From contig OZ076409.1 in the NCBI GenBank assembly GCA_964187785.1, forward strand, positions 11,162,001-11,226,000: 64,000 nucleotides of DNA, read 5' to 3'. The stretch is from Amphiscolops sp. MND2022. Its lineage: Eukaryota. The notes beneath the pieces are model-generated. The model did no database searches. It saw nothing but the letters and a program-made list of their open reading frames with translations, and had not been told where the DNA came from. Shown here piece by piece: positions 543 to 24,605 of this stretch. The translations under genes and the position numbers were made by a program. The stretch's first letter is position 1; each line of letters opens with the position of its first letter.

Positions 543-867
543 AGACTTGCTGTTCGCTACAATTTTTGCTGTATATTGTTTCATTGTGTACGTTTTGATT
601 TATTATTTTATTTTATTTGTGGTACAGGTAGTGTTAGTGTGGGTGACCAAATCAATGAAAATACTATTAGATGAGGGAGGAGTGAAAAATACTACGTCGG
701 AAAGGTCGGTAGTATGATTTATGTACATTAATTAAAATTTGGTGCCCGAAATTCATTTTCATTTAGAGCTGTTAGTGGTAGACGTTGTAGGTAGTGAAAT
801 TTTGCGGTTCATAACTTTCTTAGTCTGCTAGTAAGTCATGTCATTGAGCTATTCGGGTTCCTGTTGT

Positions 868-2631: not shown

Positions 2632-3095
2632 CATCGTTTTGACATCCTCCAGCGAAGCTAGAGTATTGTGTCAGGTTAACGATAAATTCGGTCACGATTT
2701 GATGGTAGTGTCCATCACAAATTCATCTCGTTATTTGATTTCATGTAATTTATGAATAATTGGATCGAGTTCATCGCTATTTCATCCTCTAGCCGAGCTA
2801 GAGTCTTATGATAGCATGAACGTGAGTGCGTTCGCATTCTGATGGTATTTTCCATCTCAAATGCATCGTTAGTAAATATTGCATGTTGATTGGTCGATTT
2901 TTTGGTTGAGTTCATCACTTTTTCATCTCTCGTGTGTCTGAGCTAAATTTTCGTGTGGTTTCATCCTTTTTTCATCTCAAACTTTTGTGTGGTGTTTTTT
3001 CTGGTTTTTTGATCGTTTTCCATCCGTTTTACATCGCGTTTTGTTTGTATGCGGCTTTCATGTGATTTTTAGTAACTTTTCATCCATTTTGCATC
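2632..3095. repeat. Second array of CATC-N7-CATC motifs
   Basis: Sites start at 2632, 2713, 2772, 2853, 2913, 2962, 3021 and 3081. Confidence 0.9.
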
Positions 3096-3193
3096 TTCAT
3101 GTGTTTTTTAAGTTAAAATTGCATATAATTCGTTCGTTTTTGTGATTTATTCATCCGTAACAGATCTCAGGTTTAAAATGAGACTTTTCTTGG

Positions 3194-6100: not shown

Positions 6101-8287
6101 AGAAATGGTTTTTCCCAAGTACTCAATTTGTTTTTGTCCAAATTCACATTTACTCATGCTAAGTTTAAGACCAGCTTTGTGCAATTGTTGAAAAACAAGT
6201 TCAAGGTTGGTAATCAATTCTTCGGGTGAGTGTGCTGCAATTCCAATATCGTCAACATATTGGGCACAGCGGTCCGCTTTGACCAAGGGGTCCAAATACT
6301 CACGGATTACTCCTGTAAATGCTGACAAAGAACGATTAAGACCTTGTGCTAGACGTAAAAATGCAAAAGTTCTAGACCCAAAATTAAACGATAACAGTTG
6401 GACAGATTGCTCATCGGCCATTGGAATGCAATGGTAGGCCTGGGAACAATCAAGTTTGCAGAAGTACTTTTTCCCGGCCATGTGTTGGGCAGCGTCAGCA
6501 ATTGTTGTTACGGGATGATTGTGCTCACCGTAATCGTTTTTGATCAGGTGGTTTATTCTTCTCAAGTCAACTAAAATCCTCAATTTACCATTAGGTTTAC
6601 GCTGAGCAAATATCGGGGAAGAGTATTTGCTGTGAGGCAAAGTAGTTATAATCCCGTACTCTTGCATTAGGGCTAACTCCACGAGCAAATCGTCCTTCAA
6701 ATTTGTCGGAGTCGGGAGACTTTGTGAATAAACAGGTTCTTCATGTTGAGGTGTTAACTTAACTTTAAAATCAGTGTTCATGCCAATATCAAAACGATGT
6801 CTAGCAAAAATGGAGTTGTACTTTACCAGCAACTCCTCTACCTGTAACCGTTGAGACGGAGTAAGAAGCGAGTCGTCCCAGTTGAAGTTCTTCAGGAAGT
6901 TCATCCGTTGTTCATCGGATTGGGACGGGTCAAGCTTCTCGAGCTCTCGCAGTGCCAGAATCTCATCATAAATCCGTCGCTCAATTGCGTTGAGTTTGTC
7001 TGGCTCACTGCACGTCTCGGGAGTTGGGTACCACTTGGTTGACTTCATTTCAGGGTTCACGAACAGTTGGTTGATCACTGCTTCGGCTTCATCTGGATAC
7101 TTGGTGATCAAGTTCAAGTGTTCCACTGGCATGGGCGCGATGTTTGCCGCCTGGTGTGGTGTCGGGATGCGAAAGTGTGCCAGAGTGGTGTTGGCTTCAA
7201 GTGTGTACGTGTGGTTGTTTGGGTTGGTGACCTGGATTGTCGTCTTGCCCTCGTCTAGGTCAACCAAAGCTGGAGAAACAAGCAAACACGTCTTTCGCAT
7301 GAATCCAGGTGAGCCCTCAACTGTACCAGTTGTAAGTGAGATGTCCGCGTCACTGTGGACCTGTATCATCACTTGATGGAGAGGAGGGATCACTGTTCTA
7401 GTGCTGGAACACAAATCAATTAAACCAGTTTTGAATCTGTTGTTCTTTTGCTGTCTAACTTGCATGGACATCATGTGATTAGGGAAGTGGACAAGGTGGT
7501 TTTTGATGTCTAAGTTGACTGAGTACTTTTCAAAAAAGGACATTCCAATTAAAATTGTTCCCATTGTTGGAAGGATTAGGAACGTTTCTTCGAATACTTT
7601 TCCAGCAACGTAAAATCTAAGTAAGACTTGCTTACGCACTGGGACTAAGTTCCCGTTTGCTATTTGAATTTTGAAATTCGGAGGGGGGAATTCTTGAAGG
7701 ATGGCTTCTGGATGAGCCGTTGTTATTTTTCGCAGTTCGGCTTCAGACATTGCACTTTGTATTGCGCCTGTGTCTAAAAGTGCGCTGTTTTCGTATTTGT
7801 CAAACTGAAGAGGGACGTACAGCATTTTATCTTTCTTGTTTAAATGTAAAGTGGGACTGAGAACGTGAATTTCTGTTTTAATTGCATGTTTTTTAGTTTT
7901 CGAAACGTTAATACTACTCTGTTTTGCATGTTTTTTAATACTAAGCCGTTTGTCGATTGTTGAGTGTGAAGTCGAGTCGTCGTCTAGATGGTGGGTTTCC
8001 ATCTCTTTGGCATCTTCCACCTGCCTCATGGTGTTTGGTTGCCAGTTCATCGTTTGTTCATCGTTGATTTCAGCGAGTGGAGAAAACCGGCTGCCGTTGA
8101 GTTGACGTGCATTTCTCATCGCTTTTTCATCGTTGGAAAGTCTTCGCTGATAGACGTCGTCAGCTTTTGGTCGTTTGTCCAATGAAGGCTGCCATTTCTT
8201 CATTGGACGGTCGTGTGTAGTCGGTTGAGTCGAAAGTCGTTGGTCGCGCGTTGTGTTTCTAGCGGGTGGAAATCGTGGCGGAATCAA
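3194..8287 (-). CDS. pol: Gypsy Pol polyprotein of element A (protease, RT, RNase H, integrase), expressed by -1 frameshift from gag
   Basis: LLDTGA protease; KLDCSQAYH and YVDD RT; CDAS RNase H; H-x6-GH..CENC zinc finger; IDIVGP/TDKG/ERTH DDE core; WKGPY motif; uninterrupted 1697 codons. Confidence 0.97.
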   Translation of the reverse strand: MIPPRFPPARNTTRDQRLSTQPTTHDRPMKKWQPSLDKRPKADDVYQRRLSNDEKAMRNARQLNGSRFSPLAEINDEQTMNWQPNTMRQVEDAKEMETHHLDDDSTSHSTIDKRLSIKKHAKQSSINVSKTKKHAIKTEIHVLSPTLHLNKKDKMLYVPLQFDKYENSALLDTGAIQSAMSEAELRKITTAHPEAILQEFPPPNFKIQIANGNLVPVRKQVLLRFYVAGKVFEETFLILPTMGTILIGMSFFEKYSVNLDIKNHLVHFPNHMMSMQVRQQKNNRFKTGLIDLCSSTRTVIPPLHQVMIQVHSDADISLTTGTVEGSPGFMRKTCLLVSPALVDLDEGKTTIQVTNPNNHTYTLEANTTLAHFRIPTPHQAANIAPMPVEHLNLITKYPDEAEAVINQLFVNPEMKSTKWYPTPETCSEPDKLNAIERRIYDEILALRELEKLDPSQSDEQRMNFLKNFNWDDSLLTPSQRLQVEELLVKYNSIFARHRFDIGMNTDFKVKLTPQHEEPVYSQSLPTPTNLKDDLLVELALMQEYGIITTLPHSKYSSPIFAQRKPNGKLRILVDLRRINHLIKNDYGEHNHPVTTIADAAQHMAGKKYFCKLDCSQAYHCIPMADEQSVQLLSFNFGSRTFAFLRLAQGLNRSLSAFTGVIREYLDPLVKADRCAQYVDDIGIAAHSPEELITNLELVFQQLHKAGLKLSMSKCEFGQKQIEYLGKTISSTGIAPIEKRVTDYLTKLKPPNSVKALQRYLGFVNFYRSYIPRLADKTCCLQELIKKDVPFKLNQQHKDAIFEINESLLKATKVSLKLPLPDKQLVIMCDASEHAAGYVLLIEDYADPSVKHTYAPVAFGSKKFQGGQMSLTMYAKEFLAMHFAFDEFGHILWGAKKPIIVMTDNKALTRFFQAKHIPPSLWNFCDQTLQFNFLLAHVPGVENPAADYLSRLEIRPEDRVHLKLTDTIPIHRIEIDIASRTPKQEEDEPDYFPASEPLRCKRQKDVKEMKLATGTDVAHDDGKGMKFTNCERTAASDDFATDNHLTYRLTDVDEPIQLSQFIRKVSLSNPVMSQVSPAEGIDLIQVQKNNWVIQKMIRFLEGTEILQHPVNMQDQFFQKLYKNRKRLQVVNGVLYRQFFDHTGLESHKQLVVPEDCILKIIRTLHNSPVQGHPGLKKMLYELRKRYYSPNLACKVQKVLDGCENCMKSKSVKETQLRPPLQKIYDPCDGPEDLLEIDIVGPLPASNGFTHILTAVDVFSRYLFAVPLKRPDTHSVVRGLLSIFTKHAYVPKHILTDKGTAFTAELLSEIAKAADIHISHATIKHAQTIGMVERTHAKLKKILKISVNADRPQWDRYVDIAIMAHNTTYHDSLKCSPTEIFHGRTPYNSLDLQFRNANKPAETKCKDVNEILDKMNFIFRDNLDNIISAYHKYKTYYERIARAQPLKVNEFVFLLDPKYDSQRSKEEFKTFHWKGPYKVIKVLSDSNYIIRKVGTHQTQCVHRMRLRLFKPEFPIDDINASKHLYPDTERVEDTDIFDSNIPTTDEVDQNENDNLDQDLVEEEPSEETIPRVQEQHTPQVIPPEITTRIDYHQVETDHNNFRPPTVRFGTREEIILPPPRDESRIRVPLRDEQHENQSQQTNTQNEDEERMSPRPSRSNQSRYRLRENPTPKTYPDFLIHEITSARNALRKTNKIDVTI

Positions 8288-9789
8288 AAACCCTGATTTA
8301 TGTCTTCATCAGAGTAGGTTTCTTGGTCTTCTTCTTCAGTGACTGCTTGCATAGGATTCATCGGCTTTTGTTGTCGTTTTAAGTCTTGTCTTCTAGTTCT
8401 GTTGTCATCTTGTGAATTCGTTGCGTATGGAATCTTTCCATATGCAGAACTGCTTTCTTTAGGTACACGTCGTCTGCAATCCCTTGCTGAGTGGCCTGTG
8501 TAACCGCAAATCTGGCAAACCAATTTTGGATTGTATTTCGGCTTATCTGGATCGGCTGCTTTCTTCATTGGGATTGCATCCTCCTTCTTTATGCCGTTCG
8601 CTTCGTCTCGTTGTCGGGCGCGACATTCCGTTTTGCGGTGTCCTGTCTTTCCGCAGTAGAAACATTGTCCTTCAAACCGTTTTCGTTCTGTCGGTTGTGT
8701 GGTCGTCGTTGTTGTTGTAGGCTTCGTCGTTGTAATCGTAGGTGGTGCTGAGGAGGTGACCGCGTTGAATGGTTGGATTGCCGTAGGTGGCGCGACGTAC
8801 TGCTGGTACTGGTATTTTCGCATTAGGTAGGTTTTGATTTCCTCTGGGGAGCTCTCTTCTTTGTTTGCCATGGTGAGCTCTTGTTGAATCTCGACTGGCA
8901 GTTTTCCAAACAGGAACATTTTGATTATACTGTCGGCGTCATTGCCGAAGGCTTGTTTGGCAGTCTTCTTGAGATTTTTGAGGAAATCGCCGAATGTTTC
9001 TGTTGTGGGATCATAGCGTGCTTGATCCCATTTGTAACGGGCCACTTCCTTTAGATCCTCTTTTGCAAATTCTTTTCTGAAGAGGTCGAGTACGTCCTTT
9101 AGTGTTGTCATTGGCGTTATCTGGATGGATTGCCAGTATTCTATTGCGTCATCTCTCAAAAGGCTTTGAAAGAAGTGTAGTTTGTTCTCCTCGGTGATTT
9201 TGTTGGCAAGCGGGCTAAGGTGGTTGAGGAGAAGGTGCTCAAATTCGACGAATTTGTCTTTTTGGCCTCTGAAATTTGGCACGTGTGTCTGCAGAAGCTT
9301 CGTGTTGGTGGTTGTGTTTTTGATCCGTTGGGGGATCGTCTCGATTGCATTGAGTAGTCGTTCCTCATTGCTTCTGGGGGTTGATTCTCCTTCGTCTGAA
9401 TCGTCTTCTTGGTAACTTCTGAAGTTGGTGAAGCTGGTTGTCGGGCGGTTGGAGCGGGTTTCTGTAGCTCCTGTCACCATGTCGAACCCAACCGTGTGGG
9501 TCGGCTTTGAAGGACCTTTCGAGGTTGACTGTCGGTTTTCGGTGTCTGTCTTACTTATGACAGCCATCATTAAGTCCTTCAGTTGACTGAACTCATTCTG
9601 TAGTTCGTTTATCTTTCTCTCATAACTCTCTTTTATTTCAGATAACTGAGACGAGATATCGGAAACCTCGTTGCTATCAGAATCATTGGCAGAAGACTGA
9701 GCCATGTCTGGGTCCGTTTGAATGGGTGTTTCTGATGAGGAACTAATAACTCTTCCGCTTCTGAGTTCTGTGCCTAGATCTGAGTTCAT
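8284..9789 (-). CDS. gag: Gag of element A with two CCHC zinc knuckles
   Basis: PNFRG capsid-like start; CFYCGKTGHRKTEC and CQICGYTGHSARDC; overlaps the start of pol. Confidence 0.95.
   Translation of the reverse strand: MNSDLGTELRSGRVISSSSETPIQTDPDMAQSSANDSDSNEVSDISSQLSEIKESYERKINELQNEFSQLKDLMMAVISKTDTENRQSTSKGPSKPTHTVGFDMVTGATETRSNRPTTSFTNFRSYQEDDSDEGESTPRSNEERLLNAIETIPQRIKNTTTNTKLLQTHVPNFRGQKDKFVEFEHLLLNHLSPLANKITEENKLHFFQSLLRDDAIEYWQSIQITPMTTLKDVLDLFRKEFAKEDLKEVARYKWDQARYDPTTETFGDFLKNLKKTAKQAFGNDADSIIKMFLFGKLPVEIQQELTMANKEESSPEEIKTYLMRKYQYQQYVAPPTAIQPFNAVTSSAPPTITTTKPTTTTTTTQPTERKRFEGQCFYCGKTGHRKTECRARQRDEANGIKKEDAIPMKKAADPDKPKYNPKLVCQICGYTGHSARDCRRRVPKESSSAYGKIPYATNSQDDNRTRRQDLKRQQKPMNPMQAVTEEEDQETYSDEDINQGF
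8287..8293 (-). promoter_or_regulatory. -1 ribosomal frameshift slippery site G GGU UUU
   Basis: CAG GGT TTT TGA ends gag; the -1 frame GGG TTT TTG ATT CCG is the pol frame. Confidence 0.85.
9468..9479 (-). promoter_or_regulatory. Primer-binding site TGGTGACAGGAG (tRNA-Leu-like, tentative) of element A
   Basis: Immediately follows the LTR-terminal CA; the same 12-mer occurs in B and C. Confidence 0.85.
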
Positions 9790-11604
9790 AGAGGTGAGAG
9801 AAAAGGAATTATGAGTGAAGACTGGATTCTGGATGGGTTTTCGATGTATTTTACTATTTTGTGCCTTTATTCGAACTCAAATTCACTATTTCTGAACTTG
9901 AGATGTAAATGCGATGAGTTTTACAGTAAGACAAGGATACTAGTAAAAATGAGAAATAGTTAACGAGGATTAAGCAGAATTCATCCAAATTTCATCGAAC
10001 AGATATCGATCACGGAATTACTCAGAGTTGTGAAGGTAGTGTTTTACGATGAATAAGAGATATGTTTTTCTAGTTCAAATCTGTCGTAACTCGTCCAACT
10101 GGACAGTAGCTAATCGCAATTTCGGTCTGAGTAATCTCTAATGGCGGTCCAAAATACAGCAGTTCACGTGTCTTTTCAGGCTGGTAAGACGCTAAATCTC
10201 TTACCAGCCGACTCTTATTGGCTATTGCCAGTTGGTGCTAATTGGTAAGTCACGTGACCGGTGTTGTGAACTGCCGCAAGTTGGCCAAACCACATGGTAC
10301 ATCTACATATGCTAATTATGACTAATCATCACTTTACAATGTCGCAATTGCCTGCACACAGTGTCATGGTTTCTATAGCAACTCAAATCATTCAATAATG
10401 TACTAATTTCAAGTCAAAACAGAGTAAACTGCATCACAGGATGAGAAAACGATGTTTTTCCAACTAATTCTAGCACTAAAATCAATACTTCAAAAGCAAA
10501 GATGGAAACGCGATGAATTCGTCAGAATATTTGCTGATTTTCAAGTCTAGTTTAGCTCTGGATGAAAATGCGATGAATGGTGGTCTTTTAGCTCAAAAAT
10601 CAACACGATATGAACTGGCGATGATAAAAGGATGAACTCGTCTTCAAAATGAATGATTTCCAGCACAATTTAAATCAACGATGGTAAAAGGATGAACTCT
10701 CCTCGAAAATAACTAATTTCCAGCACTAGTGAAATTGACGATGAATTCAGGATGAATTCAGCCAATAAAACAGGTGAAACAGCTAATCCTGCAGTGAAGA
10801 CAAATATACGATGACTTTAGGATGAATACATTCAATAAAACAGCAAAATCTAATGAATGAAATTCCAACGATGGGTTTAGGATGAACTCAACTGAAAATT
10901 CGGCTAATTCTAACGTAAGTCGAACTAGCGATGAATTTACGACGAACTAGTGATAAGTTAATCTAATAAAACAGATATCCAGCACTTCACTCTTTTTTAG
11001 GATGAATTAAGGATGTACTTTCTCATTTCTTGCAGTTTCTGTTCAGGGCGATGAAATATAGATGTGTTATGCTCTTTTTAAGAAATGAGAAGCACATTGA
11101 AGGTTAATAATCACAAAACGACGATGAGTATAGGATGGCTTTCATGCATTTTAAAGTCCCGTGAGATCCGCTGATGGATCACTAAATGAAATCAAATAAA
11201 TGTCTCAATTTTGTTCACCCGCAATCTTGGCGATGTGATTGCGATGAACTTTGATAATTTAGCACTGTAATTTCACTAGTAAATAAAGTTAAAAGATCAC
11301 TAAATCCGCTGATGGATTAGTGATGAACTTTTCCCGAAATTCGTCACGACTACAAGTCCTGAGGCGAGGGAGCTAGTAGAAGTTACAGATTCCATTATTT
11401 CTACATCTCTCGGTCCAGTCTGACCGGAAAACTTCTCTCCCTTATCGTGACAGACCAATATTGAATAAGATAGCACATTAAAAGCTATTGGCCAGATCAT
11501 TTGTGCGGACACCGGAATTAGAGCGCTCAGTATTAAGTAAATATATATAGCTCAAACTCAGGGGGGATAGGGATTAAAGTACAAGTAACGTAGGGTTGCT
11601 CACA
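9480..11604 (-). repeat. 5' LTR of element A (outer boundary tentative)
   Basis: Inner end fixed by the PBS; outer end from an imperfect terminal inverted repeat. The partner LTR is outside the window. Confidence 0.55.
10440..11325. repeat. Array of GATG-N7-GATG motifs at ~60-bp period in LTR A
   Basis: Sites at 10440, 10501, 10561, 10620, 10680, 10740, 10810, 10870, (10930 variant), 11001, 11050, 11123, 11232 and 11311; also 9902 and reversed at 9982. Confidence 0.9.
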
Positions 11605-11687: not shown

Positions 11688-12149
11688 TTATATTTCCATC
11701 ATGCTGGCATGACAGGGGGTGTCCACACTTGGACCCCTTTCGTGCTCTGGGGGGGACATAGGTGATTCCAAGACGGGCATTATTGTGTTACAGAGATCTA
11801 TGCGCTTCTTCTCGAATTTCCTTGGCGGGGCATAGCACATTTCCCTATCGAAGTATTTAAGGCCCAGTTTCGGTGCCACCCCTTCTTCCATTTGAGACGT
11901 ACTTGGTCCAGCTCTCGCTTCGTCTTCGGGTTCACCCATAGTCATTATTCTGCCCCCGATTAACATTGGGCTAGAAGTAACTTCCTTTTCAATCCGGGCT
12001 ATCAGTTGCTCGGTGTCAGTCGAACAATAGGTTTCCCAGTCCGAGGACTCATCTTCACTACTGGATATGTAGATTACTGATTTATCAGAGTTATCAGAAT
12101 CGTATTCTCCAAAGTCAAACAATTTTCTTGAGAGGTTAAACTTGCTCAT
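11688..12149 (-). CDS. Small acidic accessory protein with SIM-like motif (element B)
   Basis: 153-aa ATG-started ORF containing VIYISSSEDESSD; a positional counterpart in C contains VIDISSDEE. Confidence 0.55.
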   Translation of the reverse strand: MSKFNLSRKLFDFGEYDSDNSDKSVIYISSSEDESSDWETYCSTDTEQLIARIEKEVTSSPMLIGGRIMTMGEPEDEARAGPSTSQMEEGVAPKLGLKYFDREMCYAPPRKFEKKRIDLCNTIMPVLESPMSPPEHERGPSVDTPCHASMMEI

Positions 12150-13271
12150 TATGAGTTTTTTGGCGATTTTTGAAGCTGGTAAGGCGACTGATTGCTGAAT
12201 AATTTAAGACAGAATGAATATACCTAAATTCCGTCGCAAGCCGAGTTAGGACGTTTTTCCGAAGTTTCCAATTTGGCGGGTAAAACTTCGGTTGGTCGTC
12301 CTGATCCGTCGTAAACTTTCCTGAATGGAATTCCATAACTGATCGGCGTCCTTTGATATTTCAGTGTTTACCCCTCATCAGCATCATTACTATGAGAGGC
12401 GTGAATGACGCTTGAGTTATTAATATCAACTACACCAGTCTCAAGTGGGTAATTAACGGGTCGCTTGTAAACAATTAACAGCATGCGTCGCAAAGTTTTC
12501 TCAAAATGGCTTCAGCCAATCAGAACTAAGCCTTGATAAATTGTAAATTGAATAATAAAATGGCGGAAAATAATAAAACTAAATAATCCCAAAATGGCGG
12601 AAATTTTAACTAAAGGGTAACTAAGGTAATTGGACGAAACGTCGAAACGAAACAAGGCAAACAGCCATAACCGGCCATTAACTAAGTAAGCTGCAGATAA
12701 TGAAGATCTTTGTACATTTCGCTGGCAGACTCCATGTACAGAATAGATATATAAATAATCAAATAACATTAGTCTAGTAAATCTTCTTCAGCCACGAACT
12801 CCAACTATCCAATTCCTTTATTCAATTTTAAATTCCAGTTGAATTCCAGTTACTTTTCACATTCACGTTTACAAATACGCTGTCTAATCATCATCTTCCG
12901 GCCTTCACGACGCCATAACTGTTGGACTTCCACACTCCAAAGCCTTCTTGGCCTTTCCTCCACCAATTCCGATCTTTCTCAAATCCCCACTAGTTGACGG
13001 CCTGATTCGGACCAGTTCTCAGCAGTCCAATTCTCCAAGAGCATGTCTTCTGACTCAGGTTGGTTTGGGTTTCCATTTTAGAACTAATTTAACTTGATCA
13101 AGGTCAAATTTGTTCACTAAATACTTCCTGCTTCCATCACTAAACACGTGACGAGCACGTTTCATTCAAATTTGTTCACTAAATACTTCCTGCTTCCATC
13201 ACTAAACACGTGACGAGCACGTTTCATTCAAATTTGTCATACACTTCCGGAAGGTTTCTAATCGCGGTAAA
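12150..13271. promoter_or_regulatory. Candidate divergent promoter between the acidic ORF and the antisense BED gene (B)
   Basis: Head-to-head ORFs; AAAATGGCGG (YY1-like) twice near 12557 and 12591; CAGCCAATCAG; CACGTGAC twice; ACTTCCGG just before the ATG at 13272. Confidence 0.45.
13104..13237. repeat. 62-bp tandem duplication
   Basis: Units start at 13104, 13166 and (partial) 13228; each full unit has CACGT-N6-CACGT. Confidence 0.9.
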
Positions 13272-16200
13272 ATGGATTCGTATCAAGGAAGTACACCGCT
13301 AAATTTCATTCCCTTTCGTTTAGAGATTCCGTCAAAAGAGAATGCTTCTGCACCAACCTTACCCCAAGTCAGCAGTCCTGTTAATGCCGAGGACTTGACA
13401 ACACTGATAGAGGAACACAAGCGAGGCGAGGCTGGTACTTCTGAGCCTCAACCCGAAGCAAAACATGGTGGCTCAGCCGGTAGCCAAGACAGCGACACCG
13501 ATGTTACTGTTTACGCTGATTCTATGGTCCAACGGATGGAGCAAACTCAATCCCCTGCCACGAAAGATAGTAGCCTTCCACCATCTGCCTCATCTCAAGG
13601 CCAAGAACTGACCTCTGGCACTCAGGAATTGATGCCCACTGTACTCGAAGAGCGTAGATCGAGTACTCCTATCCAGTCTGAGGAGGAGGGGAGACAAGAT
13701 GTAAATCTGTCAGCTTTGGAATCTGCCTTAGAAGTTGTCATGACCTCTGGGTCTCAGTTCCCTGAATTAAGGGATAGGGAAGATCCAAACCAGTCAGAAG
13801 CAAGTGGCATTCAATCTAAGACTGACGAAGACAATGCCTCAACAGTCTGTGATGTGCCCGCGCTCCCAGGAGGCGACCCCAAAGTACGCTTCGCGGTAAG
13901 TCGCAGTGAGGAAGAAGAGTCCACAGAGGAGTCGAGCCGACTTGTCCCGGTGGAATTGTACGGGTATCCTCCTTTTACCCCGGAAACCGAAACCGAGTGT
14001 GAAGGGGACACCAGCTCTGAAAAGCAGCCCTTGAGGCCAGGTAACACGTGCGGGACCAGTGGAAGCCTTAGCCAGGACAGGCTTCCGGACCTTTCAGGAC
14101 GTAGCAGGGCCATCCTAAAGGAATATTTTGAGGAAGCATCCCCGATTAGACTCCCTGTCGGACACACTACTGTCGCCTTCACTGAGCCCCAGGTGTACCA
14201 TCTTCTGCGTACACTCACAGATGAGACTCTCCGTAGGTCCTTCAGTACCATGGAAAGAATGGTGCTTGATGCTGTACGTGGATCTCCAACCGCCCTGCCA
14301 TCACGAACGTCTCACTTTCAGCTTAGGCGACGACCGCAAACCCCCGGACCTAGGCCTCAGAGTGATTCTGAAATCGACAGCGATCATCCTGGATCGGCTT
14401 CAGACCGACCAGGATCAAGTGCAGAGGACACCGGTTGGTCGTCCTTTTACGAAGAGACCGACAGTGCCACTGAGATGGACTTAATATCGAAGTCCTTCAA
14501 GCAAACTCCTGTAATTCCTCAAAGCAGAGAGATCCGGGAAGAAACAGGAGACACCCAGCAACAGATAGAACTCGGGGCAGAAGGGTACAGCAGCCAGGAC
14601 ACTACCCTGCATGAGATGCGCAAACAGGCGCAGAAAAACTTGGACGTGGGACCTTCCAAATCCAAAAAGAAGAAAGACAATAAGAGACTTTCCCGGAGGG
14701 GTGTTCCCATGCGAGAAGAATTTTTCTCAAAAATAGGGTGGACGAGGTCATTCATATCCGGTCCGGGTGACCCTCTTCACAATCCCCATATGGTCTGGTG
14801 CCATATTTGTAAGAAAAACTTTTCTATAAAGTCAAAAGGACCTTATGAGATCTTAAGACATCACCGGACAGACCGACATTTGAGACGCGACCAAAGATGG
14901 CGGTACGAACATCTACGCAGCGTAGATCCTGTTAGCGGCAAGGTGCAACATCGGGTCAGGGGCGCCAATGGCAAAATCCTGACAAAAATTGAGCTGGCCA
15001 GTCAACTGCACAAGTTCATCAACGTGGAATTAGTGGACATCGGGGAGAGGTTCCCCTTCTATGAAGATTTCTTGCGCGGAACCACTACTGCCTTAGTCAC
15101 CCAAGAAGCGCGTGTTAAAACTCAACTCTGTCTGGTGGGCGACTTCATAAAGACGATAGGAGACCTCACTGTCTTGAGGAACTTATGGTCCAGGATGGGA
15201 GCCTACACCAACCACCAGGCTACAGTTTGCGATTTCGACTGGGGCGAAGAGCGCATAAATGTAAGGGTATTTCCGTTCTCCTGTTCATAGTCTTGAGTAT
15301 TTCTTGTCCTAAGTAGTTTTGTTTCCTTTTCAGGCCATATTCCAGCATTTTTCACAAGTGCTTTGAGTGACATTGCCGAACACGTCACTACCCAACAATG
15401 CTTCCCCGTAGAGTTCGAGACTGTAGGAATTTATCGCTACATGACTGTCAAATTCTGGAAGGGCCATGAACTATGTCGAGTTCTCATCTGTCGAAGTTCC
15501 CTTCCCGCAACTGATGTGACGGGTGAACTTGGATCTCTGGCCCGGTTCTTGTCGGCAGTATCGACCCAACCTGATGTGGTGGCGTGTTCCGGTTGCCATG
15601 TTGACCTGGTGAAGACGATTGACCAGTCGGACTACTTCCCGCAAGGGGTTCAAAGCTGTTTCCGCTTCGAGCAGCTATCATTGCCCACCCTGATGCATAA
15701 GTCCAAGTACTCTGTCTTTGGCCAGATAGACTTCTTCTCTGTGCTCCAGGCTCTGATGGTGTCCTTAGGTGGTTCCCTCACAGAAGAATGGGCGCTGCGT
15801 AGCCCAGAACTCACTAAAGTAAGTACACCCTTTTCGTCTTTCTTCCTCTTAGTCGTAGAATGAGTAGTGTTGGTACAGTGTGATACAGTCCTCAACATTG
15901 AAATGGGTTTTTACAGGCAGTTACCAGTTGCAAGCTTGACGTCCGGACACTTCCAATTCTCTGTACAGAGCTTGTGAAGGAATGGAGACTCATCCTCCGG
16001 TACTTGACTGAACATGCCCCTATACAAGGAGGTCAAGGGGTTCGCAGCAGGGTTAGACCTTATCTTATCCCTTTAATAGTACTGTCAGGTGGTTCCAGAG
16101 GGGGTGGGTTTTGGCTTCTTTTCTTGCTATGAGACTGACAAACACTCACATATGTGTTCTGCTTAAGGTACAGAGCTTCGAATGGTCCCTGATCTGTGAC

Positions 16201-17662
16201 GAGTTTTTCGTTGTCAAGCTGGAGTTCTTTAACAGGCTCACGAGTGACTGTAAGTATCTCACTTTAAGGTGAAAAGCCACGGTTTTGTTCCACTTTAGAC
16301 ACCAGACTTGTGTTTCCAGACGTGTCCAGTTTCCCTGTGAACCTCCAGCATAGACGTGATGCATCCTTTTACCTTTGTGGGGAAGTCTGTCGGTTTCTGA
16401 GCCTGCTCTGTTCCCGCGTCTATACCCCTGATACTGCCCCCTTGGCGAATGCTTGGTTCTTGTTGCTACGCTTCCAGATTAGTGAGGCCACCTTCCTGGA
16501 TGAAGAGGAGTATTTGGTGCGACTGAAGCTCACCAACAAGGTGTCGTCTGCTAGCAAAGCAAAGGCCGAAGGGATGCACTTTGGTAAGAAGTCGGAGCGC
16601 CCAGCAATCCTGGCAACTACTGAGACTGTAAAGTCTGATTTCGTCAAGGACAGTCAGCAGTACGTGCAGTACGTGCAGTACCTTATTAATGAAGTTCTTC
16701 GGCAGACTGGGCTAACCACCAACATCGTGAAAGGGATGGCTACTTTTGACCCTTTCATACTATTCAAGCGCCCTATGGACGTGGCCCTACGCCACTTCGA
16801 CATCCTGTACAGTACCTTTTCCCTCCGCTCTTGGGTATCCAGTACTAATGAGTCCTTGTGCCGGGATCAGTACATGCAGCTTCTCGATCATCTGCGTACA
16901 GCTTATAGCCCAGATTTCGATATTACCAGCGTCTCCTGTGATTTAATTGAGTTCTTGTCTGAGCTGGAGTTCCTTCGAGACCGTAGCTGTTTGTTCTACC
17001 TGTTCAAATTGTGTTGTTTGTGTGCCACCACTGTCAGTCCTACATACCCTGATGTTACTTTCGTGACAGTTTCCACCGCTGGACGCCATAGCAGGTTAGC
17101 TGACGTCATTCTTCCTGTTCAAAGTTATATGTCTAACGTGCGAGATGCAGTTGCTTTCTGTAAAGATGACAGAAATCTTGCCAGATTCATTGACTTCACT
17201 TCTTCTTTCGAGCGTTCAGCATTTGCTCCTGATTATGATCCTTGGAGCTACGTGGACACTTTTGGCCGTTCAAAAATTTACAAGTCACTGCTTGCTTCTT
17301 ATCGTGTGGCTCTTTCTTCCCCTCAAAAGGCTCTGGTCCGGATTGCGCCTGATGATGTACATTCTGTAGCTGACACATCCGCCGTGAAGGCCACTTCCAG
17401 CACTAAACGGAGGAAGATGGAACGTCGCGCATCCCGTTCATCTTCATCATCTGCCGTCGGGGCTGACGAACCTGGTTCCTCTAAATCTAACTGTACATAT
17501 GTATGTGTGTTCTTTCAAATTGTAAACTTTGTTAATTTCTTTGCCGATTTGCTTATTTATTCTTTGTTGTTTGTATCTCTCGATCCCTGTATTTATTCTT
17601 TTGTAAGGGATCCTTTGAATGCCCCACTATTTATTTCGAGGAAAAAGAATAAAAGGGGCTAG
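13272..17662 (+). CDS. Antisense multi-exon accessory gene of element B: disordered N-terminus, BED zinc finger, hAT-transposase-like body
   Basis: Exons 13272-15260, 15334-15818, 15917-16051, 16168-16249 and 16320-<=17662, with GT..AG introns in compatible phases. BED-like WCHICKKNFSIKSKGPYEILRHHRTDRH at 14796-14879. One apparent 1-nt deletion in the T-run near 15350. Confidence 0.75.
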
Positions 17663-17720
17663 AAAAAGAATAATGAAAAGATACAGAAAAGAACTCCCAT
17701 TTTCGGGAAGAATTCAATTC

Positions 17721-20700
17721 TTAGTATCTGAAGTCTTCTGAGTAGTTTGGGTTAGGGTTAGGCCTGAGATTGTATTTCCCTCCTCTAGGGCTCAGGCTTT
17801 CATTTCTAGCTTCATTTTCTGATATTTCGGGCACAATAATATCATCCCCCCTTTTTGGAGACTTTTGTGCGTCGTTTTCATTCGTCAAATTTCTTTCTGG
17901 AAGAATTTCATCATTTTTTGGTCTTTCATCCGTATTCGATAAAGTTTTTTCTTGTCCTTTGGGGTAAACGGCCGGGTTCGGCCAATCAGATTTGCTGTTG
18001 CTAGCCGCTTCACTAGCTTCATTGCTTTTTGTGACGTCATGATTTAATCTTTCATTCCGGCTCCGCGCCGCGTGGTCAGCGTAGTTTGTTTCGTCTCTCG
18101 TGATTATGTAATCCGCTTCATTCTCGTCTACGTCACTGTAACTCGGTTCTGCCGGATTCGGTTGTTCGCTATTCGGCAAGCTAGTCGGAATGGGATCATG
18201 TCCTCGTGTATTAAGCTGCTCGCCAAAGTCGGTTTCCCATGTGATTATATATAAGTCATCTTGCGGAATAACAATTTCTTCGTCAGGCTGTAGCTGCTGT
18301 TCTTGGAAATTGTCCTCAAGAGGCTGATTAGGGACAAACTTTTTAAGGCGAATTCGATGTAATATTTGAGTCTTGTTTGTGTTGATTCGTCTCACAATAT
18401 AATTTTCGTTAGGTAAAACTTTTTGGACTATAAATGGTCCAACCCACCGATAATCACGGAGTGGAATTTTTGATCCTTGATGATCCGCCTTCGGCTGTAG
18501 GACAAAGCAGTAATCATTCTCCTTTAATGGAGTGGCTTTTCCCTTGCGATCATAGTATTCTTTGTACTTGATGTATGACTGCATAATATTTTGCTTCGTT
18601 TTGTCAATCAAGATTTTCGTCCGATTTTGTATTTCTTCAGCAAATTCGGTTGTTGGGTTGACCTGCTCGTTTGGATTGTTTCCAAGCTTGTGGTCGAGAA
18701 TAATATATGGAATTCTTCCATGAAATACTCTTGTTGGCTCACAACCGATGCTGGCATGGTAACTTGTGTTGTGGTTCAGTACTGCTAATGGCAAGTATTT
18801 GTGCCATTGTCGGCGATATTCTCCGCATGCCATTTTGAGATTTGTTTTCAACGTGGCATGGGTTCGCTCCAATTTCCCAATTGTTTGCGGGTGTTTTGTT
18901 GTGGCACATTTGAGTGTTATGCCCAAAATTTGTGTGATCTCCGCAATAATTGTGGACGTAAATGCAGTACCTTCATCAGTAATGAGTGTTGTGGGTAAAT
19001 ATGCATGTTTGGTCATAATGTCAATGAGCGCTTTTGCTACATTGATGACTGATGCGTCCGTAAGAGGATAGGCAAACAAATATCTAGAGAAGACATCGAT
19101 CGCTGTTAGGACATTTTGATATCCTCCGCTTGGGGGAAGATTCGGCAATAGGTCGATTTGCATGGCGTCCTCAGGTCCAAGGTCCCATTCGGGCAAGTTG
19201 AGTAATTCAGGCGTAATTGTTGCGTTGGGGACTCGCTTGTCTCTTGCGCATTCCTCGCACCGCTCTACCCTTTTTTTGACGTGTTTGGCCATTCTAGGGT
19301 AGTAATACCTCTGTCGAATTTCCTGCAGCATTTTTGAAATCCCAGGATGTTTATGGGCTGTCCCGTGAAGGGATTGGAGTAATTCCTGGAGTAAATGTTG
19401 CGGGAGTAAATGTTGCAGTCCCTGTTTCATCAAAATATTGCCTTGCTAGGATTTCGTCCTTCAGTACAATCCGTTCCAGATTGTTTGCGTAATGTCTATA
19501 TCGGGCATCCTAGTGCAGTAAATTTTCTGAATACTCTTCATGAAGCAGTTTTGTTTTCAATTGCTGTAGAACTGCATCTTTGGATTGCTCAATAATGATC
19601 TGGTTCGTTTTCCTCAATCGGACTTGTATATCGGGGTGTTGCTTGACCAGATTTGTTGACAGAGTTTGTATAGTAACAGTGGGCTCATCAGTTGCTGGAT
19701 TTTTCCTGATTGCTTCTTTCCTTGCCCAATACTGTTCTTCTGTCTCATCGTCGTCATTGGTGTAGAAGATTTGTTCTTCTTGTGACACTCCTGCGGATTG
19801 GACATTGATTTCGATTGGTAGTGTTTGTACATCTTCGCGGATTTTCATCACCAATTTGTCCTTCGGATCTGCTTTCAATCGGGACAAATAGTCGGCAGCT
19901 GTATTTTGTGCCCCTGGGATGTGTGCTTTGACAAAATTAAACTGGATGACATAATCACAGGCGTTCCACAGGGCTGGGGCTATTATTTTTGTTTGGAAAA
20001 ATCTCGTGACAGCTTTGTTGTCCGTAAGGATGATGACCAGTTTCGGCGCACCCCAGAAGGTATGTCCGAATTCTTTGAATGCAAAATAAATTGCATGGAA
20101 TTCCTTGGCATAAATTGACATTTTGATCTGTGCTGTGGTGAAAGTTTTTGATCCATATGCGACTGGTGCATATGATTTTCTGAGTGACGTAAAATTCTGG
20201 CTTGGGTCGTCTTCGATTAGGACCGCGTACCCGGCTGCACCAAAACTTGCATCAGTCATTAGTGCTATTTGCTTGTTTGGAATGGGTTGCTGTAGGGCCA
20301 AGTCGCAACATTTGTCTAGTGCTTTGTTGATTTCTTCGAATTGCTGGACTAATTCTTTCGATACTAGGACTTTTTCGTCACTTTTCAGCATCTAGTAGAA
20401 TGGGGCAAGGCGTTCGGAGAGTCTTGGGACATAATTCATGTAGTAGTTTAGGATTCCCAAATATCGTTGTAAAGCATTTTTCGACTTCGGGAATTTGGTC
20501 TTTTCCAGAAAGTTTTGCACGTTCTGTTTCTGGGGTTTGACGCCTTGTGGGGTAATAGTCCGTCCGAGAAAATCGCTTTATTTTGCACCGAAGTGACATT
20601 TGTGCATTGTTAACTTAAGGCCTGCTTCCTGAATGCATTTAAATATAGCTCTCAGGTTGGTTATGAGGTGGTGAGCATCATTGGTCGCGATGCCGATATC

Positions 20701-22917
20701 GTCCACATACTGTGCACACTGTTCCGCTTTGATGACTTTGTCGAGGTATTCCCTCATGAAGCTTGAGAATGCGGACAGTGCCCGGCTGAGGCCTTGTGCC
20801 AAACGTCTGGATGCAAATGTGCGACTGGCAAAATTGAAAGCTAACATTTCAATTGAACGTTGGTCAGCCATTGGTAGGCAGTGATATGCCTGCGAACAGT
20901 CCAATTTACAGAAAAGTTTTTTGCCTGCTAGGTGTTGGGCAGCGTCGACTAGTGTACTGACGGGATGATTATTGTTGATATAATCATCCGAGATGAGGTT
21001 GTTGATTTTCCTCAGGTCAACCAGGAGTCGGAGTTTCCCATTTGGTTTCTTTTGTGCAAATATTGGACTCGCATATTTTGAAAACGGCAAAGTTGTTATT
21101 ATGCCATATTTGTGTAACATGGCTAATTCAACTAGGATGTCCTCCTTCAGGTTGATGGGAGCTGGAAGGCTCTGGCTATAGGCTGGGGAATCGTCCTTAT
21201 TCGTCAGTTTCACCTTGAATTCCTCATTCATACCTATATCAAATCGGTGTCGTGCAAATATATCATGGAATTCCACTAGGAATTCCTCGATTTTCTCCTT
21301 CTCTTCAGGAGTAAGGGTGGAATCTTTCCAATCAAAGTTTCCTAAAAATTTTGCACGGGATTCCTCATCTTTGGTGGGGTCAAGAGTCTCCAGGTCCTGT
21401 AAGGCCTGTAATTCTCGAAGGATTCGTTTTTGTATAGGTGTGTGTTCCTCAGGATTTCCAGGATTTTCTGGCGTCAGGAGCCAATAATTTTCGGAGTTTT
21501 GTGGATTTCTATTGGTCTTGATGAGACTGCTGACATAGTGGGCTGCCTGCTCCTGGTCATTCTGCAAAAGATGCCAGGTTGATGCCGGATCTACCGGTTT
21601 GACATACTTCATCTGTTCTGGCGTCATGACAGAGAAATTGGCAATATGAAGTCCCTTTTTGAGTTTATAAGGGTGGTCTGTGAAATTGTTCACTGGTATC
21701 AATATATTGCCGTCATTCAGAGTGACCAAAGCTGGGCAAAACGTGATGTCGCCTTCCTCGTGTAGAAGGTCGCTCGGTTGCAAAATTCCAGTGACAGCAT
21801 TCTCAGGGTAGAGTAGGGAATTGGTCCTAATTGGGACTCTATCATTTGGTGGAATAGTTGTCTCAATAGGGTTGAGAATTGGTTCTAGGACGTTTGAGTA
21901 TTTGTGATCAGCTGTTTTGAGCTGCATTGAAAAGAACGGGAAATTCAGGATTCCTTGTCTCATATCCAGAACTGTATGGTTTCTCTGAAGGAACATTAGT
22001 CCGATAATCGGTCCTGTCAAGTGTTCCATTACTATAAAAATCTCATGAAACTCGATGTCACCAACCTCAAATTTGAGCTCAATGGTACTCTTAGGAGTTA
22101 CCAATTGCCCGTTAGCGACCATTATTTGGAAATTCGGAGGCGGGCCTTCTCGGATAACAGATTGTGGAGATAGGAGGCGGATTTTCCGGAGGTCCATTTC
22201 AGGGATTGCACTGGACAGTGCCCCAGTGTCTATTAATCCATCAATGGTCAATTCCCCAAAGTCCATTGGGAAATAAAGCATGCGTTTCTTGCATTTGAGG
22301 TTAATGTTGGTTGACAGAGGTATACAGTCTGGTTCACCATCTCTGGTGATGAGTATATTTTGGAACTGTTTTTCGTCTAGTAATGATTGTGGTATGGCGT
22401 CGGTGGTATTTTCAGGGTTCTCGGTTCCCAGAGGGTTTGGGAACACTGGGTGGTTTGTACCATCGTTCATCTGCCAGTTTTCAATTAGTGCCCGTGTTTT
22501 CTTGTTGTGTGTGATCGGAGGGTTCTCGTGGACTGTTTTATTGTAGAGCTCGATGTCGTCTAAAACATACTAGAATTGCAGGAGGTCCTGGTTATAGATC
22601 TCTGTATCCCAGTAGGGATCTCCGTCATAGTCCGTGTCGATGTATGTTGGGTTGTAATCATCGATCAGGGGAATGGGCCTGAACCGGGTTGTAAAGGTAG
22701 TTGTATAATCAGGATCCCAAACAGGAATTGGTTTCTGGAACAAATGGGTGTTATTGTAGGTATTGGTGATGGCTTTTTCCATCTGCTGCTGCCAGACAAC
22801 AGAGGGATAGCCCATCAATTGCTGATTGTATTGGTGAAAAGTTTTCGTTGGAGGATCCGACCTGATGTATTGTCGGACGGATATGAGTTCGCTATATTGG
22901 AGTCGTGGCGAAGTTAG
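17721..22917 (-). pseudogene. pol: Gypsy pol of element B, broken by stops and frameshifts
   Basis: Fragments 20578-22470 (LIDTGA, YVDD), 19510-20391 (TDAS RNase H) and 17721-19433 (integrase, WVGPF). Confidence 0.93.
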
Positions 22918-24605
22918 TTTTTTGACTCATCATTAGAAGATGAGGATTGGGAGCTTGATGATGTCGGCTTGGTCTGAGGTTTCTGAGCCTTTGAATTAGG
23001 CTTATTATCATTTGAGTCCTCGGGTCTAGTGCGTTTGGGTTTAAGATGTGCACCGGCACCTTGCCAACATCTTTCTTCCGGGTGGTTCTTTTTGCCACAA
23101 GTGCCACACTCCGGATATGTTTTCTTTTGAGTCGACTTGCCTTGTTGGGCGTCTTTTTCTTTTTTCTTTTCAAACTTTTCACAGTCCTTGACCATGTGGC
23201 CCTTTTTCTTGCAGTAGTTGCAAGTGATGTCCGACATTTGTTCAGTGGACAGAGGCGTTTTGGGCTTAGTTGATGAGGAAGTCATTGTTGCCATTGGTAG
23301 GTCGTCTGACTCCTCGAGAGCGTTAAGTTCCAATTCCCTCTCTAAATGAGCAACTATCTCATCGTATGAGCCATTTTCTAATCTGGCCATGTTGACGGAC
23401 CGCTTCAGTTTTGGTGGCAGTTTTGCATAAAGCAAGCTGTCAATCATTTTCTGTGCATGATCACCAAACGCCTTTTCTGCTCCCTGGTTGAATTCCTCGA
23501 GAAAATCAGGCAGTTTCATTGTATTGGAATCGAATACCAGACGGTGCCATTTATGTTTGGCGGTCGCCTGTGACTCGGGCTTGACGTATTTTCGTCTAAA
23601 GATAACTAATACGTCCTCTAGAGTTTGTCGGTTACTTGAGCTGATGTTTCTGAATGTCTGAAGGGCATTCTTCCTCAATAAAGAGTGGAAGTGATTGATC
23701 TTCATTTGCTCAGTCATTTCTGGCTGCATCTTGATCATAGTGTGAAATAGGTCTTCGAACAGCTCGAATTTTTCACTTTTGCCATCGAATGTCATGGTAT
23801 TTGAGTTGACTGGGCGTATTGTGAGTTGCTGGGCTGTCGGTCTATTCTGCATCGTAGTCAAGACGTCTGCCAGTCGAATGATGGGGTCGGAGTCAATAGC
23901 CGTAGCGATTCTCTCTTGTGCCGGGATCGTCGTGTCGAGGTTGATGTCCTCAAAGGACCTGTCGAGATGATTTCTGGATGAGATTCGTCCTGTGAGAAAA
24001 TCAGGAACTTGATTTGGAGATTCGTTGTCTCCTGTCACCATGTCATGAACATTACGGTGTGTTTTGTCACCATGTTCACTATTAAGAGTAGTCTTAGCTC
24101 TCGCGTTGTGCTGAACTTCGGAATAACTTTCCGGCCTCTCATCAGATCTCTCCCATCCTCTTCTAGTCTCCTGTCCTGAACCGGCCATAATAACGTTTTG
24201 AATCTGGGGCAAAACCTGGTTATTGATGGCGTCACTTATGGCTCTCTGGATCTGAGAACTAACACTGTACATCATCTCATCCATTTCTCTAGATATTCTA
24301 GAGTTTAATTCACTCGATAACTTATTGATCTCAGCCTGAGAATCTATGCTTGCTGAATTTTGGCCGTAACCGTCATTAATCCCTCCTTCAAGATTTCTAT
24401 GGTCGGAATGGAGATTCATTTCATCTTCCAAATTATTACTTGTAATGCTTTCTTGCCTCCTAATCGAGGTGCCATTAAGGCTGTCGTCTCTTTCTGTCCC
24501 GTTAAAGTGATTCTCTCCTAACATAATATCAAGGTTCTCAATGTCTGAGAGGAACTCTAATCCCCTAGACGTTCTTGCCTTCTTTTGTTTTCTTGTAGTA
24601 GGCAT
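22914..24605 (-). CDS. gag: Gag of element B (likely start MPTTRKQKK)
   Basis: TFDGKSEKFELFE capsid-like motif; CNYCKKKGHMVKDC and CGTCGKKNHPEERC knuckles. Confidence 0.92.
   Translation of the reverse strand: MPTTRKQKKARTSRGLEFLSDIENLDIMLGENHFNGTERDDSLNGTSIRRQESITSNNLEDEMNLHSDHRNLEGGINDGYGQNSASIDSQAEINKLSSELNSRISREMDEMMYSVSSQIQRAISDAINNQVLPQIQNVIMAGSGQETRRGWERSDERPESYSEVQHNARAKTTLNSEHGDKTHRNVHDMVTGDNESPNQVPDFLTGRISSRNHLDRSFEDINLDTTIPAQERIATAIDSDPIIRLADVLTTMQNRPTAQQLTIRPVNSNTMTFDGKSEKFELFEDLFHTMIKMQPEMTEQMKINHFHSLLRKNALQTFRNISSSNRQTLEDVLVIFRRKYVKPESQATAKHKWHRLVFDSNTMKLPDFLEEFNQGAEKAFGDHAQKMIDSLLYAKLPPKLKRSVNMARLENGSYDEIVAHLERELELNALEESDDLPMATMTSSSTKPKTPLSTEQMSDITCNYCKKKGHMVKDCEKFEKKKEKDAQQGKSTQKKTYPECGTCGKKNHPEERCWQGAGAHLKPKRTRPEDSNDNKPNSKAQKPQTKPTSSSSQSSSSNDESKN
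22917..22923 (-). promoter_or_regulatory. -1 frameshift slippery site A AAA AAC (B)
   Basis: TCA AAA AAC TAA at the end of gag. Confidence 0.8.
24029..24040 (-). promoter_or_regulatory. Primer-binding site TGGTGACAGGAG (B)
   Basis: GTTCATGACA|TGGTGACAGGAG on the minus strand. Confidence 0.85.

Follow-up and report, generated by a model that had tools for sequence, protein, structure and literature searches.

Within a 64,000-nucleotide stretch of the genome of Amphiscolops sp. MND2022 (contig OZ076409.1, positions 11,162,001 to 11,226,000; hereafter, the window), the plus-strand segment 13272-17662 was analyzed, which adjoins the minus-strand gag-pol region of element B, one of three divergent Ty3/Gypsy retrotransposons of the window (A, B and C). 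The segment is probably a decayed copy of a spliced accessory gene of a very abundant Ty3/Gypsy lineage, located antisense between pol and the 3′ long terminal repeat (LTR), derived from a hAT transposase and devoid of its catalytic triad; the product would act in trans in a non-catalytic, DNA-binding role. A preliminary description of the window had proposed that an LTR lineage captured a hAT-like gene. The predicted fold and the language-model neighbours of the protein speak for this proposal, within which the capture would have been made by the retrotransposon and the protein would bind DNA.

Structure and conservation of the antisense gene

The plus-strand open reading frames (ORFs) of B, 13206-15290, 15297-15863 and 16268-17662, lie tail-to-tail with the minus-strand integrase ORF (17721-19445) and stop about 60 nt short of the integrase stop codon on the opposite strand. 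The gene model was obtained from the window copy aligned with six further copies of the same genome, the exon proteins being 57–92% identical. Five exons and four introns were delimited (Table 1). Considering the four introns in the seven copies, the donors were GT in 28/28 cases and the acceptors AG in 28/28, in agreement with the preliminary description, which had taken the gene as spliced. The intron lengths differ between copies by non-multiples of 3, and intron identity is 48–56% versus 69–84% for the exons, while exons 2, 3 and 4 measure 486, 135 and 82 nt in every copy other than that of the window (n = 6). An intron-4 acceptor at 16297-98 was also considered and dropped, because the acceptor conserved in 7/7 copies places the start of exon 5 at 16320.

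The unbroken B-type copies encode about 1,290 residues, made up of a long N-terminus, a C2H2/BED-like zinc finger, an RNase-H-like core and a large all-helical domain. Exon 1 contains the long N-terminal region, rich in Ser, Glu and Pro, which occurs only in the B type and is probably disordered, followed by the zinc finger and a linker, and it ends in ...WGEERIN before the donor GTAAG. The motifs named in the preliminary description were located at FPVEFE 15402, MTVKFW 15441, LCRVLI 15471, ELGSLARFL 15525 and VVACSGC 15576, together with the zinc finger (Table 1) and, in exon 5, FKLCCLC (17003), accompanied there by LPVQSY (17111) and YDPW (17234).

The window copy departs from the other copies in two respects. 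Its exon 2 has 485 nt, versus 486 in 6/6 others, due to a 1-nt deletion near the start that shifts the frame, and it has lost the usual stop (...SSK, then N or D, then the stop codon, about 392 codons into exon 5), which is present in 5/6 other copies. The end of the frame at 17662, previously given as the end of the gene, is thus a read-through. Judged from its sequence, the window copy is a decayed, dead copy of a real five-exon spliced gene.

Concerning abundance, searches of the 1.07-Gb genome assembly with three pieces of the gene yielded 7,715, 7,825 and 4,633 first-look candidates, and those scored in each search (91, 150 and 150, respectively) were all strong matches. In one genome search the exon-1 frame was open over at least 670 residues in 33 of the 50 first-listed matches. 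Longer loci were fetched in 14 cases (6 B-type and 8 C-type), and in every one pol sequence occurred downstream on the opposite strand, in convergent orientation, one locus keeping merely an RNase H remnant of pol. An ORF in antisense orientation was found in the interval from pol to the 3′ LTR in B and C of the window and in 14/14 fetched loci. In element C, the accessory gene is placed between pol and a 94%-identical repeat of 2.37 kb, within the LTR-bounded unit. A scan of 11700-17800 for terminal inverted repeats gave only short imperfect inverted pairs, none of them bracketing the gene. The genomic context described beforehand, antisense to and convergent with pol, was so recovered in the best-scoring loci, which are not a genome-wide census.

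The ratio of nonsynonymous to synonymous substitution rates (dN/dS) was estimated between copies by the Nei-Gojobori method, the figures coming only from pairs with estimable dS. The ratios were 0.01–0.05 for the zinc-finger block (last 200 codons of exon 1; 4/21 pairs), 0.02–0.08 for exon 2 (6/21), 0.04–0.16 for exon 5 (8/21) and 0.08–0.24 for the N-terminus (8/21), and 0.08–0.15 for the integrase (6/6) and 0.06–0.10 for the RNase H (6/6) of pol. In the other accessory-gene pairs dS was saturated, with dN values of 0.08–0.54. The low ratios, together with the saturated dS at these dN values, indicate that purifying selection is no weaker on this gene than on pol. A range of 0.01–0.24 across copies, rather than about 1, suits the earlier view that the gene has been kept.

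Homologous plus-strand genes had been claimed for all three elements, which holds for B and C and was not upheld for A. Exon 5 of B matched 31693-32358 of element C by tblastn (E 6.3e-6), a hidden Markov model (HMM) built from C-type exon-5 proteins only matched the B ORF with E 6.4e-12, and in an alignment of 53 rows (A2) the B- and C-type proteins are collinear over the zinc finger, the linker, the intron-1 position and the core, with 14–27% identity. Intron 1 is in the same position in both types. The C-type genes are without the long N-terminus of B, their finger being about 60 residues into its open frame (not counted from the protein start), and without intron 2, exons 2 and 3 being fused and the ORF continuous there; the gene family has thus seen gains or losses of introns. 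The C copy of the window differs from a sister copy (L029) by a 1,121-bp internal deletion (window 30548/30551 = L029 3372/4494), a loss that extends from the zinc finger across the linker and intron 1 to the first strand of the core. As a consequence, the pairing of the C junction peptide VAGRKMVVKFK with MTVKFW of B, made in the preliminary description, was mistaken, the true counterpart in alignment A2 being FCFVVWWEDD of C.

Concerning element A, its open-ended ORF (3-542) gave no HMM match at E≤10, no phmmer match among 273 family proteins, and in hhalign only an E of 0.065, on a ...SR..LFRFLMCL... motif; by eye, it has three motifs at matching spacing in common with the family. Between the end of this ORF and the stop of pol (3194) there are 2.65 kb, the equivalent gap in B being about 60–220 nt. 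The intervening 2.65 kb (542-3194) has no long ORFs, B and C being far more compact, and may represent an insertion or a different gene layout.

Predicted fold and relation to hAT transposases

Two structural models were considered. Model 2, which covers the zinc finger and the core, was derived from a natural C-type open frame that reads through intron 1 (L029:3766-5007; alignment A2). Its elements of secondary structure, β1 232-239, β2 242-251, β3 254-264, α1 271-283, β4 292-294 and α2 298-307, followed by further helices, come in the order of an RNase-H-like fold, and residues 220-400 reach predicted local distance difference test (pLDDT) values of 65–86 in the core. When model 2 was searched with Foldseek against 350,542 PDB chains, the top match was the Hermes hAT transposase (8edg_A, E 4.3e-4, probability 0.99, 393 columns). 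Hermes was the sole match at E≤1e-3 and took ranks 1-5, 7, 12 and 15, accounting for 8 of the 13 rows given up to rank 15. With VIA-align, model 2 was superimposed on Hermes with Z 5.2 over 196 residues, the longest alignment, which places residues 159-414 of the model on 135-355 of the chain.

Model 1, corresponding to exon 5 (alignment A1, 45 rows), is all-helical, with a mean pLDDT of 74. In an exhaustive VIA-align comparison, Hermes had rank 6 (Z 5.5, root-mean-square deviation (rmsd) 4.2 Å, 145 residues), with residues 5-243 of the model on 364-566 of the chain, this being the longest alignment among the top rows. Since the N-terminal part falls on Hermes 135-355 and exon 5 on 364-566, both halves are collinear on one Hermes chain. 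The structural expectation of the preliminary description was so borne out as to the RNase-H-like core, the first place of Hermes in Foldseek and the collinearity of the halves.

Searches of the ESM Atlas, a protein language-model resource, pointed in the same direction. For exon 5, the neighbours of ranks 2 and 3 were clusters with PF05699 (Dimer_Tnp_hAT) in 56% and 53% of their members (score 0.90), and FAM200-GTF2IRD2-like clusters were also among the neighbours (0.88–0.90). For the N-terminal half, the neighbours included EPM2AIP1, ZBED5-like, GTF2IRD2-like, DUF4371 and FAM200-ZBED5_RNase-like clusters (0.79–0.84). In a library of 1.8 billion proteins, 427 representative relatives were found, with lengths of 79–418 residues among the 150 listed. 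Exon 5 had 132 near-length homologues, which among the 120 listed were all from ENA and without Pfam domains; no longer homologues of exon 5 were found in the search.

The zinc finger has the pattern C-x2-C-x16-H-x4/5-H, and model 2 shows strands and then a helix at that place. In A2, the ligand columns hold Cys in 27/27 and 26/27 rows and His in 28/28 and 27/28 rows. Pfam zf-BED matched 0/53 members at E≤5, the sole models obtained being generic C2H2 ones, with E 0.2–1. The assignment as a BED-type finger, made beforehand, stands therefore at the level of the motif pattern and the ligands, and not at that of the Pfam family.

Concerning the catalytic residues, their equivalences rest on motif and secondary-structure position, without a printed structural alignment. 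In strand 1, 27/30 rows show a Glu and the remaining ones S, M or V; this Glu may be a replacement of the first catalytic Asp. Between strand 4 and a conserved Gly, the residue at the position of the second Asp is R, S, V or C and never acidic, while the same place in the real hATs of this genome reads ..TDNA.... The replacement of acidic residues of the hAT core, advanced in the preliminary description, was thus seen at this position. A conserved D-D-E triad was not found in the accessory protein. The loss of the second catalytic Asp makes canonical DDE chemistry unlikely, and the protein is probably non-catalytic. As a guess only, the third catalytic position could correspond to a Gln of exon 5, that of the motif LPxQSY, which hardly varies.

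Several results weigh against a hAT origin. Pfam gave no family at E≤1 for the three B ORFs, PF05699 included, and a hAT or BED family in 0/53 members of A2, and phmmer and profile searches of the PDB did not find Hermes. In Foldseek, the exon-5 model had no PDB match at E≤0.001. The overall confidence of model 2 is low (mean pLDDT 53.8), and its Foldseek TM-scores were just 0.20–0.26, with large rmsd. The VIA-align top 50 of model 2 were all RNase-H-like folds with Z 5–7 (pantothenate kinases, Hsp70, actin-related proteins, retroviral integrases and Argonaute), a Z interval which is the noise range stated for the tool and in which many unrelated RNase-H-like folds score like Hermes. ESM Atlas recognition was 1776 and 2077, below the mark of 2300, and scores under 0.9, as in the N-terminal half, count as a lead only. 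The comparison of A1 and A2 by hhalign with hAT fragments of this same genome, a weak test with 8–12 fragmentary rows, was not significant, the best match being that of the zinc finger with a BED finger (E 0.12). Regarding sampling, the 14 loci come from the best-scoring matches and not from an unbiased census, with stand-alone or degenerate copies outside Gypsy elements unsampled, and the whole data set consists of one genome plus ENA ORFs.

A hAT-superfamily transposase as the origin of the accessory gene nevertheless appears fairly likely, because the lines of evidence, each of them weak by the standards of the tools, differ in kind, concern non-overlapping parts of the protein and agree on a family that had been proposed beforehand. 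The protein is most likely closest in flavour to the Buster/ZBED5/GTF2IRD2 branch of the hATs.

Another interpretation is that the protein is specific to this lineage and has merely the common RNase-H-like fold, being a zinc finger, core and helical bundle of another origin, for instance a diverged duplicate of the integrase of the element or of another DDE enzyme, in which case the likeness to Hermes would be a coincidence of fold. It would accommodate the integrases, ASKHA kinases, Hsp70 and actin-like proteins that reach Z 5–7, equal to or above Hermes, the low confidence of model 2 and the fact that no sequence or profile method ties the protein to hAT. It is nonetheless unlikely, considering that the 3Di search was topped by Hermes, the only match within its E threshold, and not by integrases, that both halves are collinear on one Hermes chain with a helical domain at the position of the hAT insertion domain, and that independent language-model look-ups of non-overlapping halves gave solely hAT-derived families among the named neighbours. 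It could also be thought that the protein keeps transposase or nuclease activity through an active site of non-canonical type, and that it cuts or joins DNA for the element. The strand-1 Glu, the conservation of several further acidic columns and the strong purifying selection would be in keeping with this, but the absence of an acidic residue after strand 4, where DDE enzymes have the second catalytic Asp, the lack of inverted repeats as a substrate and the presence of an integrase of the element's own make it very improbable.

As to independent nested hAT insertions, or an overlapping host gene, in place of retrotransposon cargo, it is true that genuine hAT elements are present in this genome, with 146 PF05699 matches at E≤1e-8, all of them above the cut-off, among 150 scored of 2,215 candidates, and none of these matches is one of the accessory genes. 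Such insertions or a host gene would have to account for the same position and orientation relative to pol in 14/14 loci and in two element types with accessory proteins about 14–27% identical, for the absence of flanking inverted repeats, for the inclusion of the gene in the LTR-bounded unit of element C, and for tandem copies that recur, together with the element, every 14,465 bp; this explanation looks already refuted and retains hardly any probability. Among the ordinary hAT transposons of the genome (e.g., L053-L064), some copies have open frames of 597–697 residues, and none coincides with the Gypsy-borne gene.

Exchange between elements, expression and other features of the window

The comparison of two B-type loci, L010 (G000:C7:20805900-20815800) and L013 (G000:C12:14840000-14849900), is of interest for the history of the gene. 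Their pol regions are near-identical (dS 0.036 in the integrase and 0.074 in RNase H), whereas dN of the accessory genes is 0.08–0.27 in the stretch running from the C-terminal portion of exon 1 to exon 5 inclusive and 0.47 in the N-terminal part, with dS saturated in most segments. The block of divergence comprises the coding region together with its introns (Table 1), a pattern that looks like recombination of a cassette whose break-points would be the start and the stop codon. The same tendency was observed in C-type loci, where pol is 83–89% identical and the accessory gene is patchily alignable at 65–69%. The histories of pol and accessory gene, whose congruence had been put forward as a check, are thus incongruent, which indicates that old accessory types were recombined onto related backbones and is not an argument against a captured gene. 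A possible, though rather doubtful, interpretation is that of a swappable specificity cassette, in which anciently diverged allelic types of a dead hAT would be shuffled by recombination onto near-identical gag-pol regions and kept by an arms race (e.g., by blocking host silencing or choosing integration sites), the antisense, intron-bearing layout restricting the expression of the protein to integrated copies.

In element B, a stretch of about 200 bp that precedes the ATG of the accessory gene shows conservation between subfamilies (6 other copies) and holds a TTCCGGAA palindrome. This stretch is a candidate internal promoter of the gene and, together with an AATAAA (Table 1), suggests an independent antisense transcription unit. 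A 62-bp tandem duplication (about 13108-13229), each unit with a CACGTG, is found just upstream of the ATG in the window copy only.

It seems reasonable to propose that the accessory gene would have a promoter of its own, within the approximately 200 bp before the ATG, which would drive transcription of the integrated copies, and that the four introns would be removed only from the antisense transcript. In the sense genomic RNA the introns are reverse-complemented and unrecognised, so they would pass reverse transcription unchanged and outlast retrotransposition; as they are read only from the antisense transcript, the protein would be made solely from integrated DNA. Antisense-intron retrotransposition reporters rest on the same principle. 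A zinc-finger, hAT-like, non-catalytic protein would most plausibly bind DNA and oligomerise, and it could act in trans in the nucleus as a sequence-specific factor for the element, its likely roles being the control of transcription or silencing of the element or the guiding of integration.

Table 1. Positions of the accessory genes, their parts and their carrier elements in the window, and segments of the L010/L013 comparison (positions in L010)
Feature	Position	Strand	Basis or remark
Upstream region of accessory gene, element B (3′ LTR side)	11715-13271	no strand	blastn similarity to L009-L014 upstream flanks starts at ~11715
Exon 1 (663 codons)	13272-15260	+	ORF; donor GT in 7/7 copies
Zinc finger, C2H2/BED-like, CHIC-x16-HH-x4-H	14799-14879	+	motif position
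Intron 1, phase 0	15261-15333	+	GT..AG 7/7; 69–73 nt; identity 52% versus 73–74% in flanking exons
Exon 2	15334-15818	+	first half of RNase-H-like core (strands 1-3, helix 1, strand 4), assigned from model of C-type homologue
Intron 2	15819-15916	+	GT..AG 7/7; 95–116 nt
Exon 3 (45 codons)	15917-16051	+	135 nt in 7/7 copies
Intron 3	16052-16167	+	GT..AG 7/7; 110–121 nt; identity 48%
Exon 4, ends in phase 1	16168-16249	+	82 nt in 7/7 copies; identity 84%
Intron 4	16250-16319	+	GT..AG 7/7; 69–70 nt
Exon 5	16320-17498	+	all-α domain, then Ser/Lys-rich tail
AATAAA, candidate poly(A) signal of accessory gene	17648-17653	+	sequence only; ~70 nt before pol stop on the other strand
gag-pol, element B	17721-24701	minus	four ORFs (protease, reverse transcriptase, RNase H, integrase); Pfam
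Accessory gene, C type	29548-32565	+	deletion derivative; stops in exon-5 part
gag-pol, element C	33157-39482	minus	several ORFs; Pfam
Left 2.37-kb repeat of C (LTR + 5′ untranslated region + gag start)	26313-28686	no strand	94% identical to 38990-41319; bounds accessory gene on 3′ LTR side
Open-ended ORF upstream of pol end, element A	3-542	+	homology to B/C gene not established
gag-pol, element A	3194-9876	minus	ORF list
L010/L013, 97–100% identity	L010 932-1110		sliding identity; includes ATG at 1058
L010/L013, mostly 40–75% identity (mean ~60%)	L010 1112 to ~5250		sliding identity
L010/L013, 83–93% identity	L010 5257-5490		sliding identity; from stop codon at 5266
L010/L013, 95–100% identity	L010 5491 onward through pol		sliding identity

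The three elements are LTR retrotransposons with a DNA identity of about 65% in their reverse transcriptase regions, and they show by Pfam the domain order of Ty3/Gypsy elements: zf-CCHC or DUF1759, aspartyl protease, RVT_1, RT_RNaseH, Integrase_H2C2, rve and Integrase_p58_C. The pol of element B is decayed, its reading frame being broken into four ORFs, and no LTR pair of this element was found within the 64-kb window, even at word size 7. The start of gag is also contained in the 2.37-kb repeat of element C, which points to a tandem arrangement with shared LTR in head-to-tail arrays. On contig C12, three B-type copies (14845922/14860387/14874854) are spaced exactly 14,465 bp. Both copies of the LTR region of C contain arrays of 6–7 tandem units of 58 bp (27505-28152 and 40196-40785), which might be candidate binding sites for an element-encoded or host factor.

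Elsewhere in the window, a non-LTR retrotransposon is found on the plus strand at 49900-53130, with two adjacent ORFs matching Exo_endo_phos (E 7.4e-5) and RVT_1 (E 5.9e-40). A cluster of short direct and inverted repeats (pieces of 90–190 bp, 75–93% identical) occupies 42146-44475 and contains a minus-strand ORF of 229 residues (42811-43500) without Pfam match.

Comparison with known systems

The accessory protein resembles hAT transposases (Hermes; 8edg, 4d1q, 8sjd and 6dww) in the order of its parts, that is, N-terminal zinc finger, RNase-H-like core and large helical domain, and the motif pattern around strands 1-4 resembles, by eye, that of the hATs of this same genome. It differs from them in the lack of detectable sequence or profile similarity, of the second catalytic Asp and of a PF05699 match, and its gene differs in having neither inverted repeats nor mobility of its own, and in its four introns and location inside a retrotransposon. 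The nearest language-model neighbours of both halves are domesticated hAT derivatives of the Buster/Charlie type (ZBED5, EPM2AIP1, GTF2IRD2 and FAM200), although scores of 0.79–0.91 are to be taken as leads only. These are proteins with zinc finger, RNase-like and helical parts that have lost transposase activity. Unlike the genes of the ZBED5 type, which are single-copy host genes, the accessory gene is the cargo of a retrotransposon with multiple thousands of copies.

Antisense proteins are also known in complex retroviruses, where HBZ of HTLV-1 and ASP of HIV-1 are short proteins, of bZIP or membrane type, under the control of the 3′ LTR. The likeness is that of a regulatory protein whose gene is on the minus strand, close to the 3′ end of the retroelement, with expression restricted to integrated DNA; on the other hand, HBZ and ASP are unrelated in sequence and fold, and not derived from a transposase.

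If the proposed origin is true, the accessory gene would clearly exemplify how an LTR retrotransposon can carry a DNA-transposase gene that strong selection maintains, genes passing in this way from one great class of mobile elements to the other, and the antisense-intron design may let a large multi-exon gene ride in a retroelement. In annotation, the thousands of such copies present in a genome of 1 Gb can be taken wrongly for host genes or hAT transposons.

The closest parallel in layout is found in plants. According to the parts consulted of two reports, Gypsy elements of the Tat/Retand, Grande and RIRE2 groups carry, in many members of a lineage, an antisense extra ORF between pol and the 3′ LTR, of unknown function and in some cases coding for nuclear proteins, with a Transposase_28 domain (PF04195) or no known domain (PMC7264820, PMC11963269). 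The location antisense to gag-pol between pol and the 3′ LTR is shared with the gene described here. PF04195 was not among the Pfam matches of the B ORFs (E≤1) or of the 53 members of A2. In the portions available, a survey of annelid LTR elements mentions antisense extra ORFs solely in its introduction (PMC8220671), and a term search of a bdelloid rotifer study on captured ORFs showed no mention of transposases (PMC5408684). A Gypsy element with a hAT-like, intron-bearing antisense cargo was not found described in the full-text literature, a coverage that leaves out most subscription journals and the Repbase reports. The present gene offers a possible handle on the antisense extra ORFs of Gypsy elements, whose purpose in plants is, in the part consulted, still given as unknown (PMC7264820). 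Unlike the plant ORFs, it has four conserved introns and a hAT-like fold, the word intron being absent from the text searched of the plant reports (PMC7264820, PMC11963269). Antisense extra ORFs of Gypsy elements are already known, and what appears to be new here is the predicted hAT-like fold together with the four conserved introns.

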